In this document: positions 102 to 59,520 of the stretch, one piece after another
Layout of the letters: each line of letters begins with the position of its first letter
How positions within the stretch are numbered: the first letter of the stretch is position 1
Source: Euglena gracilis
Taxonomy: Eukaryota
Direction: 5' to 3'
Length of the DNA: 64,000 bases
Assembly: GCA_039621445.1 (NCBI GenBank)
Contig: CP154954.1
Span: 48,959,847-49,023,846, forward strand
Program-made: the position numbers and the translations under genes
Notes under the pieces: generated by a model
Databases searched by the model: none
Told to the model about the DNA's origin: nothing
What the model saw: the letters and a program-made list of their open reading frames with translations, nothing else

Positions 102-3100
102 CAGTGCGACCGTCCCTCCGCCGCCGCTCTCGACACGGAATCCGTGGCCTTCCTGCGGTGGGCCTTCGGGGCTGACAGCCTCGCCGCCGCCCTCGAGGAC
201 GCAGGGCTCGCACCGCTGGCCACCGCGTCCCCCGCTGTGGTGGCGGCCAACGACCAGCCGACTCCCCTGCCCCGTCCGGTGGGGGGAGGCAGAGACCTGT
301 GCGAACCCATTCGGGGTCTGGCCCCCACCCCTTCAGGTGGGGGTGCTTTTCAGGAACTCCTGGGTTGGCCGGCCACAGGTGCCGCCGCTGTTCCGGCTGG
401 CAGTGTGGGTGACATCGCCGGGGCAGGGGTGTCCTTGCGGCATTGCTGGTGTTGAGTTGCACGCCTGCTCCGGGCAGTTCATTCAGGAAGCTTCTTTCAT
501 GCCCTAGTTTGCACAGCTGAGATTTTCGGTAAGGTGCGTGTGTACATGCACCCACGCATGCATTCATGCAGAAGAAAAAGAAAGAAGATATGCATTCCAT
601 ACGTGAGATACACAGCAGCCTTGTCCTTTTTTCTTTCATTGTCTCTTCCATCAACTATCTAACCCCCGGGGGGTTACATTTTTAACCACTCATAATTCCC
701 AATCCGGTTTGGTGGTTGGGGTTGCAAGCAGGATTGGGCTCTAAGTTGACGTTTGGTGTTTTCCTGGAAGGGGTTCACAAAAGTGCCTTTTTGTCCTAAA
801 AGGTATTTTGGGTCGGTATTTTTGTCATCACGTTATGGGTTGGCATGTGGTGCACACGTGTTGGCAGATTTTGTTTTTGAATCCTTGTTCCCTTTTTGGC
901 CTGAGGGGCTTGAGTGGGAGGGGGGTTAGAAGCCTGTGACACCAAAATCTGACACGTGCCTGAAGGTGGAACATCGTGCCCAATGAAATCCGCGTGCACA
1001 GCATAATTTGTCCTGCACGCCCAATTGCATTGTGAAATGCGCCTTTTGCATTATTCCCAACACTCCTCCGTCTCTGATTTCACCAACCGCATTGCCCCAG
1101 CTCCCTGCTGATCAACGGACGTGGTGCCCATCGTCGTCGGTGCCTGTGTCGGGGCCTTCTTCCTCCTCCTCATCCTGGTGGGGTGGTACGTGTGGAAGTC
1201 CTCGCGTGGCCAGGGCCCTGGGGTCATGCTACCTGAGGCTGGCACCCAAATGAGGCCGAAACGCTGAATTCGCCGCACATGGTTTTAGTCTTCCGATGCA
1301 AAATGGTGTGTCAGTATGGCTGCTCTTTTGCAGCGGCAACGCTCCCCTTCATTTTTGGCCCAAAGCGCGGAGTGTCAAGCCACTGCGTGATAAGGTGACC
1401 TCTTAAAATAAAAGACTAGTTTTTGTAGTTTTTTTTGTAGTTTGATATCAAGGGATGAATATAACCAAGGACATCGTACTCAGACACCCTCACACTCAGC
1501 AAAGAAGATAACACTGGAATTCTTTCATCTTCCTCGCCCCTTCACCACAGAGGGACTGTCCTCTGAATGCACTTGTTTTATGTGTGTGCACGTCCGTGTT
1601 TTCCGTGTTTTGTATACATGTTCTTGTGTTTTCCATGTATGTCGTGTATGTGTGTGTGTGTGTGTGTGTTTTCCATGTTTTCCGGCGGTTTCTGACCGCT
1701 GAGGCGGCCCTTCCCGGGGCTGTGCAGGCGACATGCGGGCCCTGCGCAAGCAGTTCTCCGACGTGAAGGTGGCAGAGGACTGCGCCGAGGCCATCGCCTG
1801 CTTCGACCTGGATGCGGTGTCCTGGCCAGGCGTCTCTTGATTGCATGGGGTGGGGGGGGGCAGCGTTGACAACGTTGCCACCCAAGGATTGAGCCTTCGG
1901 CAGTATCGTCTGGTGCTCGATGGCTGGGTTCGTCAAGGTTTTCCCCGTCGGCAGCCAACCCCGGATGGGACACACCCCGGAAGGGGCTGACAGAAGCCTG
2001 GGCCCGGCTGTCCAACCTGACCAAGCCCAGCAAGATCCAGCTGGCGTTCTTGCGGATCGTCAACCTGCTGGTGGAGGTCAGACGGGGGGCATGCCACCCC
2101 GCAACCACCGGGAGTGGCGGGGGGTGCCGCCCAGTTCCCCGGCTCCGGCTCCCAGGCTCTTGGTTTTGTTCGGGGTTGGGGTCAGGGTCAGGGCTACAGT
2201 CGGGGTTCGACCGCCAATCCCGGCCCGCGCTTCCAGCACCATCCAACCATTTGGGCCAGGCCTCATGGCAGTCCTCACGCCCCAGCCTGCCCCCCACGCC
2301 AGCCGTTCATCCCGGACCAGCTGCTGAGCCAGCTGCAGACCGCTAGGCACGGGGCAGAGCCAGCCCTGCCGCCGACGCCGAAGCGGCCGCGCGGCAGCCG
2401 CGACGACCAGACGCTGCCAAGCACCCACTCCCGGTCCACCATCAGCTCTGCCGCCAGTCGGCCCAGCTCCGGCTTTGCCCTGGACAGCCACGGCTCTGCC
2501 TTCCCACGGCATTCCCGTCACATGACACAATTCGGGTGGTTTCGGGCGGAGGCGCATGTTTTTGGCTGCAAAAGCCAAAATTTTCGAGGAAAGGATCGAA
2601 AAAGGCCAAAAATGGTGTTTTGAGGGCTTTGGGGGTTATCTTCACTTCAGACTGGAAATTTCCCATCCACCTGGATTTGGGGTTTTTGCCGTTTGTTTGT
2701 GCACCAGTCAGATCCAACCTGGCAACCGGCTGGACGCACCCTCCCTGACCCCCTCCCGGGGAGGGGGGGGACCAGCCAGCACCTTGGTTTAGCCGTCATC
2801 TCTTTTCAACCAGCCTTGGGCCTTTAGAAGTCCCCCAATGCAAGGCCAGCTCCGACGTTGGGTTCAAAACCAAATTTACCGTGGTCACTGGAAGGCTTCA
2901 ACCCGCAGCGCGCGGAGTGGGCCTTCGCGCGTACGTTAAGGTGTCCGACCCCCCCCCCCCGGGGGAGGGGTCGGCCAGAAATGGCTGACAGTGGCCACTC
3001 AGCACCAAAGGCGCCGGAAAATTTTTGGGGGCTTTTGGCCAAAATCCATTGATTTTGTGATCCATTTTTGGCTGAGTGTCCAAAGTGACCGACCCCCCCC

Positions 3101-58000: not shown

Positions 58001-59520
58001 TTTGTTTGCTTGTTTATTTGTTTGTTGGTTGGTTGGTTGGTTGGTTGGTTGGTTGGTTGGTTGGTTTGTTAATTTGCCAAATCCAAAAATCTTAGAGGAT
58101 CTATGATGCGAGGTGGAGGTGCCAATATCACCCCATCATTTCGTTCTGTCGGGACCAATTTTGCGAGTTGGAAAAAAAGCAAATTCAGAAAAGATCAAAA
58201 GATGACAAAATAGAGGCTTGATACCACAAATTTCCAATGAACACGGGCAACGTTCCCTGAGTTGTGCCAAGCGAAAGATAACAACGGCATGAGACCGTGA
58301 AGACTTTTCGTTCATATTTGTTTCTGAAGTCTGCCGCTGTGCAAAACCCTTGGCCAGCAGTGTGTTCACCCGTTCAAGTGTCAAGATGGTGTGCACCGAC
58401 ACTCCCTCCACAAAAACCCGGTGGTCTTTTGTTTCATGCAGGGCCGGTCGCAAGAGAGTCCACAAAAAAAAAACGTCTCAAATGGCAGGGAGGATGTTAT
58501 TCATTTATCATCAACCCCTTCTGACCTTGTTGATATTGGTCCATGTCCTCCAAAGAGTCATCTAGGGGAAAGGGGTTCACTTAGGGGGGACTTCCGCACA
58601 CCAAAGGGACCCCCCCCCAAATGGTCATTGGGATGGGGGGTCATTTAGAGGGGGGTTCATGGTAAATCAAGCTGGGCATGAAAGCACCACCCATTATTTC
58701 AAACATTTTTGTTGGTCACAATTTTCAAATTCGATTTTATCTAAAAATTGCCACAGTTGACTGCACTTGAGGCACCTGAGGTCAAATTGTCCATGCAGGC
58801 TTCTTTTGACCAACCCCTGTGGCGGCATAGCAAATACCCTGGGGGGTCCTTTGGGTCTTGGCCTAGGCCGACCCAATCAATTTCCCCCCTTGATAATGGA
58901 CATTTTCGGGCCCTGGTGCCTTCGGTGACCCACCCCTGGTGGAGGGTCGAAAATGCCTCACCCCACCCCCCTGCCACACCCCCGGGGGGGCTTCCTGAAA
59001 ATAAGTCTGGTCCATGCGCTTCAAACAAAACAGGGCGTGATGATGTGGCTGACACGGCAATGACCAGAAGCTGTCAACAAGAAAATATTATTTTTAAAAA
59101 ATACACATATGTATAGTTTTAGCAGATAATTTATTAACAGTATTAAATAAGAAATTTAACAAAAAAACTAGAAAAAATAAGCTTGTGGTGTCTCTTGAAC
59201 AGCTCACTTAACTCAACTTGTCCTGGTTTCCTTCTTTCAAGCAAATCACGAATCTTTTCGTTATAGATCTCAATGTACTCCATCGTGAGCGGGCCATAAA
59301 CCTCCATGGCACTGGTGTGGAATACTGAATACTAATCTTGTGGTTTTAAAATTAATTTATTTAATTCAAAATTCAACTTTTTGAAAAAAACAAAAAATTA
59401 AAAATGCCAAGGAGGTTCATGCTCTTCACAGAGAGGGTTGAGTCTGCCTGAAGCTTGTCCTGGGCCATCCCCATCATGGCACTGACGAACCGGGGAATCA
59501 GGCCAGGGAACCCCTCCTCC
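43085..59520 (-). CDS. Multi-exon kinesin-3-like motor with coiled coil and C2-like domain; N-terminal motor (P-loop) not seen in the window; 3' end uncertain. Clear exons approx: 59424-59519, 59215-59289, 58263-58452, 57528-57678, ~55748-55784, 55184-~55305, ~54993-55068, ~52790-52826, ~50612-50720, 48900-~49020, 48678-48807, 45429-45557, ~44007-44112
   Basis: Kinesin motifs in order: [38 protein letters not shown] (switch I), IVDLAGSER (switch II), [62 protein letters not shown]. Then EKEK..coiled coil and [13 protein letters not shown]...YCKYVF...[10 protein letters not shown] (C2-like). Confidence 0.88.
46054..46410. mobile_element. hAT-like MITE (same family as 25252-25683)
   Basis: TIR CATACCATT/AATGGTATG; TSD gttgtgcc/gttgtgtc matches 7/8. 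Confidence 0.75.
47634..48061. repeat. About 2.6 copies of a ~163-bp tandem repeat
   Basis: aaaagtcgaaaaa..ttcgcccaaaaccatgtttttt..ggacccggaaaa..gagctgaaaatgagcgtttttcg recurs at ~47634, ~47797 and ~47959. Confidence 0.9.
53827..54114. mobile_element. hAT-like MITE; related copies at ~42560-42836, ~61955-62145 (inverted) and a partial near 48420-48466
   Basis: TIR CATGCTTGTGCTTA/TAAGCACAAGCCTG; perfect 8-bp TSD CTCCTGAC (53819-53826, 54115-54122). Confidence 0.9.
57893..58070. repeat. Compound microsatellite (TG)n-(GTTT)n-(GGTT)n
   Basis: Directly visible. Confidence 0.95.

Follow-up and report, generated by a model that had tools for sequence, protein, structure and literature searches.

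Nonconventional introns and transposon-like elements with 8-bp duplications share a geometry in a 64-kb window of Euglena gracilis DNA

Nonconventional introns of euglenids lack GT-AG borders and have a terminal stem that runs from position +4 to position -6 (Milanowski 2014/2016, Nomura 2025). A 2025 report formulates their code as 5'-N3CDG..CH'GN5-6|R and describes a knock-in assay in which insertions and deletions probed the 3-nucleotide (nt) and 5-nt spacers (PMC12501133). [quoted passage not shown] In a 2024 review, the legend of Fig. 3D has repeats resembling target site duplications (TSDs) beside CAG/CTG inverted repeats, and the text describes the excised introns as circular RNA (PMC11282704). 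In gapC of E. agilis, one intron that is strain-specific and newly gained has direct repeats of eight nucleotides, and the authors interpreted these as the scar of a repair event (PMC4770533). Both junctions are reported to have a common Y|R consensus (PMC6221363), and related introns with G/C-rich inverted ends are described from diplonemids (PMC12621601). Here we analyze a 64-kb stretch of Euglena gracilis DNA (contig CP154954.1, positions 48,959,847 to 49,023,846), which we call the window. In it, the nonconventional introns of two genes lie among transposon-like elements with 8-bp TSDs, and one of the introns is such an element plus one TSD copy. A previous, sequence-only reading had proposed that these introns are insertions of MITEs of the hAT superfamily.

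The window introns are ordinary members of the published class: they have the same lack of GT-AG, the same stem from +4 to -6, the same purine as the first base of the next exon, and the same direct repeats at their junctions. The 3/5 geometry, a MITE origin, TSD-like repeats, and an 8-nt repeat at a new intron are all already published. Beyond this, the window adds a spacer sum that equals the TSD length of co-resident transposons and an intron with family copies elsewhere. In a literature search that left subscription journals mostly outside, we found no paper equating the 3+5 spacer sum with an 8-bp TSD, none on non-exonic copies with 8-bp TSDs in Euglena, and none calling the Euglena intron elements hAT.

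Three other systems are close. Introners of Micromonas, Aureococcus, and others (Huff 2016, Gozashti 2022/2025; PMC11282704) are likewise non-autonomous DNA transposons with inverted repeats (IRs) and TSDs. As reviewed there, the element and one TSD are spliced out and exonic insertion is tolerated, as here, but the splice sites of introners are spliceosomal (GT/GC-AG), and one of them is co-opted from a 3-nt TSD. In contrast, the window introns have junctions without a fixed sequence that are measured from the stem, and their 8-bp TSD is split 5|3. The hAT MITEs (Ds-like elements; BniHAT in Brassica, as described in PMC7385995) share with the window elements an 8-bp TSD, short IRs, CA-type ends, and multiple copies. 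The size of the window elements, 240 to 1700 bp, is also that of hAT MITEs. However, a cognate transposase was not found in the window, the end consensus is only partly matched, and the window elements are GC-richer. Finally, the Merlin elements of E. gracilis (PMC8101967) are from the same species and have 8-bp TSDs, but their ends begin with GGTACTTGT instead of CA.

Intron 5763-7477 and its transposon family

Two transcript-derived proteins match the window exon by exon, and therefore the window is E. gracilis nuclear DNA. A 58-amino-acid (aa) exon at 4086-4259 matches EG_transcript_328 (1192 aa) with 100% identity, and exact k-mer blocks place residues 665 to 1187 of that protein at 96-9316 of the plus strand. 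We refer to this locus, the 3' part of a gene that is also defined by transcriptome sequencing (RNA-seq) joints, as gene 1. A 113-aa minus-strand exon translation at 58139-58477 matches EG_transcript_6461 (611 aa), whose gene Pfam assigns as a kinesin motor. Residues 141 to 611 of the kinesin map to 59519-43975 of the minus strand with block identity of about 100%, and so the gene extends past the range of 1824 to 58262 covered by the sequence-only reading. Kinesin residues 1 to 140 had no match in the window by tblastn or with exact 6-mers, which places the 5' exons past position 64000 unless they have diverged. The database kinesin protein differs from the window at several single residues (e.g., K/R and M/T), and RNA-seq bases differ from the window at many positions. 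This suggests strain or allele variation.

Intron 5763-7477 of gene 1 (plus strand; located by protein mapping and by its terminal inverted repeat [TIR] family) is plainly a transposon that lies in a coding exon and is spliced out with one TSD copy. The element occupies 5766-7472, its ends are CAGGCACCTATG and CAAGCACCTATG, and it is flanked by a perfect 8-bp TSD, GTGGTGGG. The removed length is 1715 nt, which is the 1707 nt of the element plus 8. Across the site the protein reads QRFFVVGGPEV, in a block without gaps in five homologues. Therefore, at this intron the earlier proposal that splicing removes the element and one TSD, and so restores the exon, was borne out.

The same family is found outside the exon. 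A MITE at 61010-61548, which lies upstream of the kinesin exons mapped here, has the TIR CAAGCACCTATG at both ends and an 8/8 TSD, CCCCCCAG. It and 5766-7472 have a common end, CA(A/G)GCACCTATG, matching at 12 to 14 of 16 positions, and their perfect 8-bp TSDs differ. Furthermore, loose ends in the RNA-seq data, at 5769 and 5857, have the TIR of 5766-7472 behind other flanks. The shared TIR and these loose ends indicate that the family is multi-copy.

The structure of element 5766-7472 has some further features. Arrays of the decamer GACCGCAGCC adjoin both ends in the same orientation (5766-5890 and 7385-7472), and a second, internal copy of the right-end motif (..CTGTCATAGGTG) lies near 5875-5888. 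The element looks composite. A version of the family from elsewhere, also present in RNA-seq reads, is much shorter.

Junctions and stems of the nonconventional introns

To place the junctions, all donor/acceptor pairs that reproduce each protein were enumerated, and two raw-read RNA-seq runs and two RNA contig sets were mapped to positions 1-12900. For each intron, the best terminal helix was sought at all offsets. Spliced protein mapping identified 25 introns in the two genes, 24 of which are non-GT-AG: 12 of the 13 gene 1 introns in the window and all 12 kinesin introns. The sequence-only reading had counted about 11 such introns. The class is real but the count was low, about 11 or 12 being the number with literal CAG/CTG ends. 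The claimed geometry stood, because 21 of the 24 have a terminal helix in the 3-nt/5-nt register, with two at 3+6 and one with a sum of 7. In 19 of the 21 canonical introns, a purine is the first base of the downstream exon. Below, "flanks" is the number of identities, out of 8, between two stretches: the last 5 nt of the exon with the 3 nt that open the intron, and the last 5 nt of the intron with the 3 nt that open the next exon.

RNA-seq provided at least nine joints in gene 1, and at least eight of its nonconventional introns have one. Joint 256>439 removes intron 257-438 (GCC|GAC..GTC|CTTGC, 3+5, flanks 2/8), and joint 478>1112 removes 479-1111 (CAG..CTG, 3+6, sum 9), which can slide to 482-1114. 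Next are 1208-1729 (GGC|CAG.., CA/TG paired, 3+5, flanks 4/8; joint 1207>1730) and 1824-2005 (GGC|CAGGC..GCCTG|GGCCC, flanks 6/8), whose joint, 1823>2006, was covered by 11 read starts in one RNA-seq run and 12 in another. Intron 2487-3410 has joint 2486>3411 with no slide and a 13-bp helix (CACGGCTCTGCC../..GGCAGAGCTGTG), and 3555-4083 (GCG|TGGGCCGCCC..GGGCGGCCCG|GCGCC, 3+5) has joint 3554>4084. Intron 8279-8514 (GCC|GGGGCC..GGCCCC|AACGC, 3+5) was placed by protein mapping, and its RNA joint is 8278>8518; we infer that the intervening AGT is AGC with a C>T difference. The last one, 8621-9275 (GGC|CAGGCGC..GTGCCTG|GCAGA, 3+5), has joint 8620>9276 with no slide. The sole conventional intron of the two genes, GT-AG intron 7578-8092, corresponds to joint 7575>8091 (GT..AG, cut +2).

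Protein mapping alone placed intron 5763-7477 and three more in gene 1. These are 2081-2300 (GAC|GGGGGGCA..TGCCCCCC|ACGCC, 3+5, a unique junction), 4262-4698 (GGG|CAGGCC..GGTCTG|GCGGT, flanks GCGGCGGG/GCGGTGGG, 7/8), which lies within a conserved ungapped block, and 4785-5686 (GCC|CAGGGCC..GGCCCTG|CTCCT, 3+5). Among the RNA-seq joints listed for 1-12900, there were no back-joints at intron ends of the kind expected from circular RNA.

The kinesin introns, all on the minus strand, were also placed by protein mapping. The first, 59291-59424 (CATGAACCTCC../..GGAGGTTTATG, sum 7), has an uncertain junction with one protein mismatch. Three more are 58446-59200 (GTT|CAAGAGA..TCTCTTG|CGACC), 57679-58262 (ACT|CAGGGA..TCCCTG|GGGAC), and 55069-55183 (GCC|CAGCAG..CTGCTG|CGTGC). 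For three introns, several junctions are compatible with the protein, and the register was picked from these: 55785-57527 (AGC|CAAGCTG..CAGCCTG|CCTTG, flanks 5/8; one of six junctions), 55304-55743 (GGG|CAC..GTG|CAGCC; one of five), and 52829-54994 (AGC|CAGGCTG..GCCCTG|ATTGC, flanks GTTGCAGC/ATTGCAAC, 6/8; one of nine). Unique junctions were found for 50723-52789 (GGT|CAAGG..TCGTG|GCGGC) and for 48808-48899 (GCC|GAGGGCCGGGCC..|CCGGCC), which is 3+6 and had correctly been described as off by one base. The others are 49014-50613 (GGC|CAGGGCGC..GCGCCCTG|CGGCT), 45558-48677 (GTC|CAGGCGGCAGGC..GCCTGCCCCCTG|CCCGG), and 44113-45428 (GGC|TGGACAAATGCC..GGCATTTGTCCG|GGGCT).

Downstream of gene 1 as mapped, region 9410-12760 contains three additional RNA-seq joints (9409>10233, 10270>10946, and 11099>12648). 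Their position places them in the 3' untranslated region of gene 1 or in another gene. On the plus strand, 9410-10232 and 11100-12647 are also consistent with the 3/5 geometry.

Inverted-repeat elements, 8-bp duplications, and other repeats

We scanned the window for IRs with CA..TG ends that pair at 11 or more of 14 positions and lie 40 to 4000 bp apart. The CA..TG requirement and a low-complexity filter were used because an unfiltered scan was swamped by poly-G/C and satellites. Perfect 8-bp flanking repeats were found at 7 of the 1047 candidates and a 7/8 repeat at 1, whereas none of the 1047 was above 6/8 when the flanks were displaced by 10 nt. Element 12283-12524 has one more perfect TSD, beyond the filtered-scan set. 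The window contains 10 MITE-like elements with CA..TG ends, with a perfect 8-bp TSD in 7, 7/8 in 1, and 6/8 in 2; the perfect count becomes 8 when the intron element 5766-7472 is added. Flank identity across the 10 elements is 75/80 (0.94) at a TSD length of 8 and no higher than 0.34 at lengths of 4 to 7 and 9 to 12. The elements group in multi-copy families, and further truncated copies are present.

The sequence-only reading had listed five free CA..TG MITEs with 8-bp TSDs. All five are IR elements and four have 8/8 TSDs, but 46054-46410 has 7/8, and those at 12283, 46054, and 53827 are not free, because they sit within introns of expressed genes. MITE 12283-12524 (TIR CAGGCTTCTTTTTAAG/CGGGCTTCTTTTTAAG, TSD ATGAAGCT, 8/8) is in the RNA-defined intron 11100-12647. 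MITE 46054-46410 (flanks GTTGTGCC/GTTGTGTC), which is related to 25252-25683, is nested in kinesin intron 45558-48677, and 53827-54114 (TIR CATGCTTGTGCTTA/CAGGCTTGTGCTTA, TSD CTCCTGAC, 8/8), which has relatives at 42571-42835 and 61954-62145, is nested in 52829-54994. The other two from that list, both recovered in the IR scan, are 25252-25683 (TIR CAGGCAATTGCTTAAG/CATACAATTGCTTA, TSD GTGGCAGC, 8/8) and 40147-40542 (TIR CAGGGTGCGATATA/CAGGGTTCGATATA, TSD GTCCCGTC, 8/8).

Three elements with perfect TSDs are newly found: 61010-61548 (described above), 50992-51466 (TIR CAGGGAATTTCTTAAA/CACGGAATTTCTTAAG, TSD GTTGGCAC, 8/8), which is nested in intron 50723-52789, and 56036-56556 (TIR CAGGGTTGTTTGGGAA/CAGGGTTGTATGGGAA, TSD GGGCCAGT, 8/8), which is nested in 55785-57527. 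Two weaker ones have flanks of 6/8. MITE 19445-19668, from the IR scan, has TIR CAGGCAATTGCTTAAG and belongs to the family of 25252-25683, and TIR element 10289-10932 (CATCGACCCACTTG/CATAGGTCCACTTG, flanks GTCCTGGC/GTCCCGAC) coincides with RNA joint 10270>10946.

MITE and intron interiors have sequences in common. A palindromic poly-C/poly-G motif of the GACCCCCC..GGGGGGTC type recurs within MITEs and long introns (e.g., at 2940-2975, 3085-3120, 5585-5600, 12305-12325, 25275-25300, and 46075-46095). Blast matched the interior of 19445-19668 to 5576-5647 and that of 25252-25683 to 2949-3029. These ties between intron and MITE interiors suggest that long introns have been enlarged through nested insertions.

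The repeats at intron junctions might instead be scars of double-strand-break repair left by intron gain, as the authors proposed for the 8-nt repeat of the new gapC intron (PMC4770533). We consider this very improbable. The same exact 8-bp repeats surround non-exonic, multi-copy IR elements, and each copy has a different 8-mer, which is a signature of staggered transposase cuts. Also, such scars have no fixed length.

We also compared the flanks of the 21 canonical introns. They are identical at 79/168 positions, compared with 138/504 at neighboring positions. In a re-pairing permutation that keeps position-specific composition, the mean was 61.9 (standard deviation, 5.6; p = 0.0023), and the maximum was at offset 0. 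Flank identity by assumed TSD length was 0.47 at 8 and 0.22 to 0.35 at other lengths. Four introns were at 6/8 or above, whereas 0.6 were expected (p = 0.0027), and these four are the source of the excess: 5763-7477 (8/8), 4262-4698 (7/8), 1824-2005 (6/8), and 52829-54994 (6/8). Therefore, an excess of the duplication that the sequence-only reading expected at the 5+3 offset is present in the window and peaks at a length of 8, but it comes from four introns. The individual flank duplications of 8/8, 7/8, 6/8, and 5/8 that it had listed were as stated, the 5/8 being read on the minus strand. The flank consensus has G at TSD position 1 and C at position 8.

Shared splice-site composition (Y|R and a G-rich +1 to +3) plus chance could also make flanks similar. 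Cross-paired flanks of different introns already match at 2.9 of 8 positions, not about 2.2, and the single GT-AG intron reaches 6/8 through its AG|GT consensus. However, the permutation retains composition, 8/8 and 7/8 are expected in less than 0.5% of pairs, and the intron with 8/8 flanks is a member of a transposon family. We give composition scarcely any credence as the explanation.

The window has other repeats as well. A retroelement region occupies 36882-39634 (plus strand), with 33052-34773 and 35070-36395 on the minus strand. One open reading frame (ORF) of the region has a reverse-transcriptase match (E 2.8e-9) and a weak match to a Dam-like adenine methyltransferase (E 0.002), and the next ORF has a tyrosine-recombinase match (Phage_integrase; E 3e-5), so that the make-up is DIRS-like. 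Retrotransposons carrying adenine methyltransferases have reportedly been described in a 2026 preprint. On the opposite strand, a 574-aa ORF without a Pfam match has two gag-like zinc knuckles of the CCHC type, and an ORF of 442 aa is coiled-coil in appearance. Satellite-like arrays with palindromic TTTGCGCAAATGCGCA-type units lie at about 16000-17800, and there is a repeat at 12943-13046.

Origin of the introns and superfamily of the elements

We think it probable that transposons with 8-bp TSDs become nonconventional introns when they land in exons. A class of non-autonomous cut-and-paste transposons would make TSDs of exactly 8 bp and would have short TIRs that begin with CA(G/A/T) and end with (C/T/A)TG. 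After an exonic insertion, the two inverted repeats of the transcript could pair as a stem, and nonconventional splicing would cut 3 nt upstream and 5 nt downstream of it, following the published, experiment-defined rule. Because 3+5 is 8, the removed RNA would be the element plus exactly one TSD copy, and the reading frame would be restored. Exact restoration of the exon would in turn mean that insertions are born as ready-made introns. The idea that the cut falls between TSD positions 5 and 6 restates the published N3/N5 rule, and in introns with an intact TSD the cut is invisible because the junction slides.

The window contains the elements, their 8-bp TSDs, intron 5763-7477, and three introns that have kept 6 or 7 of 8 positions, and transcripts or proteins lack the element and one duplicate. 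A MITE insertion is the origin of intron 5763-7477 and a plausible origin of the three others. Older introns that have no detectable duplication may have the same origin.

Several points weigh against this explanation. The other 17 of the 21 canonical introns have no excess, with a mean of 3.06 compared with 2.91 of 8 in the control. A TIR pair that matches any of the 10 window elements was found in only 1 of the 24 introns, and most element ends carry a ..TTGCTTAAG-type motif, whereas most intron stems are GC-rich. The strict CAG..CTG pair of the published code is present in only 3 of the 10 elements (19445, 40147, and 56036). The spacer sum is not 8 in three introns (9 in two and 7 in one), and in 2487-3410 the main helix is at 2+6, with a 2|6 cut (although its sum is still 8). 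Joints for 2081-2300, 4262-4698, 4785-5686, and 5763-7477 are not among the RNA-seq joints listed, and so the earlier expectation that RNA-seq would place the junctions was realized for at least eight gene 1 introns but not for these four. At 5763-7477, the repeat continues imperfectly over 16 nt in all (5749-5765 compared with 7465-7480, GGTTCTTCGTGGTGGG and GGTGCTTGGTGGTGGG, 14/16), which is beyond a simple TSD. One RNA contig links ..GGCGGGGCAGC to 7465, which is not the protein-supported junction and is frame-shifted relative to it; it could reflect minor mis-splicing, a different locus, or an artifact of template switching. Finally, all statistics are from a single 64-kb window.

Some of these points are expected if transposons passed a filter rather than being the source. 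An older, independent splicing process would remove any stem with 3+5 nt, transposons with 8-bp TSDs and CAG/CTG ends would merely happen to fit and would alone survive in exons, and most of the hundreds of thousands of nonconventional introns would have arisen otherwise. The absence of detectable duplication in 17 of 21 introns is consistent with this, as are the ends of 23 of 24 introns, which are unlike those of any window element. The code as given in PMC12501133 accepts N5-6 and varied triplets, and the G/C-rich inverted ends of the related diplonemid introns (PMC12621601) fit too. However, duplications decay, and so their absence from old introns is expected in any case. The intron flank consensus (G1 and C8) resembles element TSDs, and the gapC intron is a recent, strain-specific gain with an 8-nt repeat (PMC4770533). 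We consider a filter unlikely, although because old insertions would lose their TSD, they would leave the same pattern as a different origin, and 64 kb cannot decide between them. Therefore, the claim that the introns are MITE insertions applies to one intron and plausibly to three more, and it does not extend to the others on these data. Similarly, the predicted link between intron ends and MITE TIR families was found for 5763-7477 with 61010-61548, and this was the 1 intron of 24 with a non-exonic family copy within the 64 kb.

The insertion explanation has a broader form. Every such transposon might be a latent intron, the N3-stem-N5 arrangement might be an image of CA..TG ends plus an 8-bp TSD, splicing might amount to recombination at 5|6 at the RNA level, with one TSD copy retained by the mRNA and the other by the excised circle, and most of the 300,000 or more (approximate) nonconventional introns of Euglena might come from one transposon class. 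We offer this tentatively, as something that could prove correct but that we judge a little short of an even prospect.

Which superfamily would move the elements is a separate question. The consensus of hAT termini is of the YARNG type, which a CAGGG start fits, and the hAT target preference is nTnnnnAn. All ends of the window elements begin with CA. CAGGG is present in 3 of 10, and the rest begin with CAGGC, CAAGC, CATAC, CATGC, or CATCG. Nine perfect TSDs have T at position 2 in seven, A at position 7 in three, G at position 1 in six, and C at position 8 in five. Judged by TSD length and CA-type ends, the elements plausibly belong to the hAT superfamily, and other MITEs have been put in hAT by their 8-bp TSD (PMC7385995). 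The hAT identity proposed by the sequence-only reading has these two features in its favor, but the ORFs scanned in the window included no hAT transposase. Indeed, no DNA-transposon transposase of any family was found by Pfam among 52 + 138 window ORFs, which is another point against the overall explanation. The 138 are stop-free ORFs of 19977-44024, and in 9304-19834 and 44070-64000 the scan covered only ORFs that are among the other 52.

The elements could be real transposons with 8-bp TSDs that were moved by Merlin, P, or another superfamily. The missing hAT transposase is consistent with this, as is the CAGGG start in only 3 of 10 elements. In addition, the only documented autonomous DNA transposons of E. 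gracilis that we found are Merlin elements, which have 8-bp TSDs and conserved or intact DDE motifs (PMC8101967). However, both E. gracilis Merlin families begin with GGTACTTGT (PMC8101967, supplement 4). In the window this end had 11 matches, with 10.7 expected, and none was at an element end. Because GGTACTTGT differs from the CA with which all elements begin and is not enriched, we rejected Merlin as the source. Furthermore, T2 in 7/9, G1 in 6/9, and C8 in 5/9 TSDs partly resemble the hAT target preference. A non-hAT mover is a possibility that we take seriously but do not favor.

How euglenid nonconventional introns arose and why they follow the 3-nt/5-nt rule are standing questions, and the MITE idea has been without a named transposon since 2014. 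Our result sharpens that known hypothesis into a testable form and does not describe a system of a new kind. If the spacer sum is the TSD length of co-resident transposons, then the spacer rule would gain a simple evolutionary rationale, in that the exon is restored exactly. The 8-nt repeat of the newly acquired gapC intron would then be reread, instead of being taken as a repair scar. If most nonconventional introns come from one transposon class, they would be the largest introner system known, and one without GT-AG sites.

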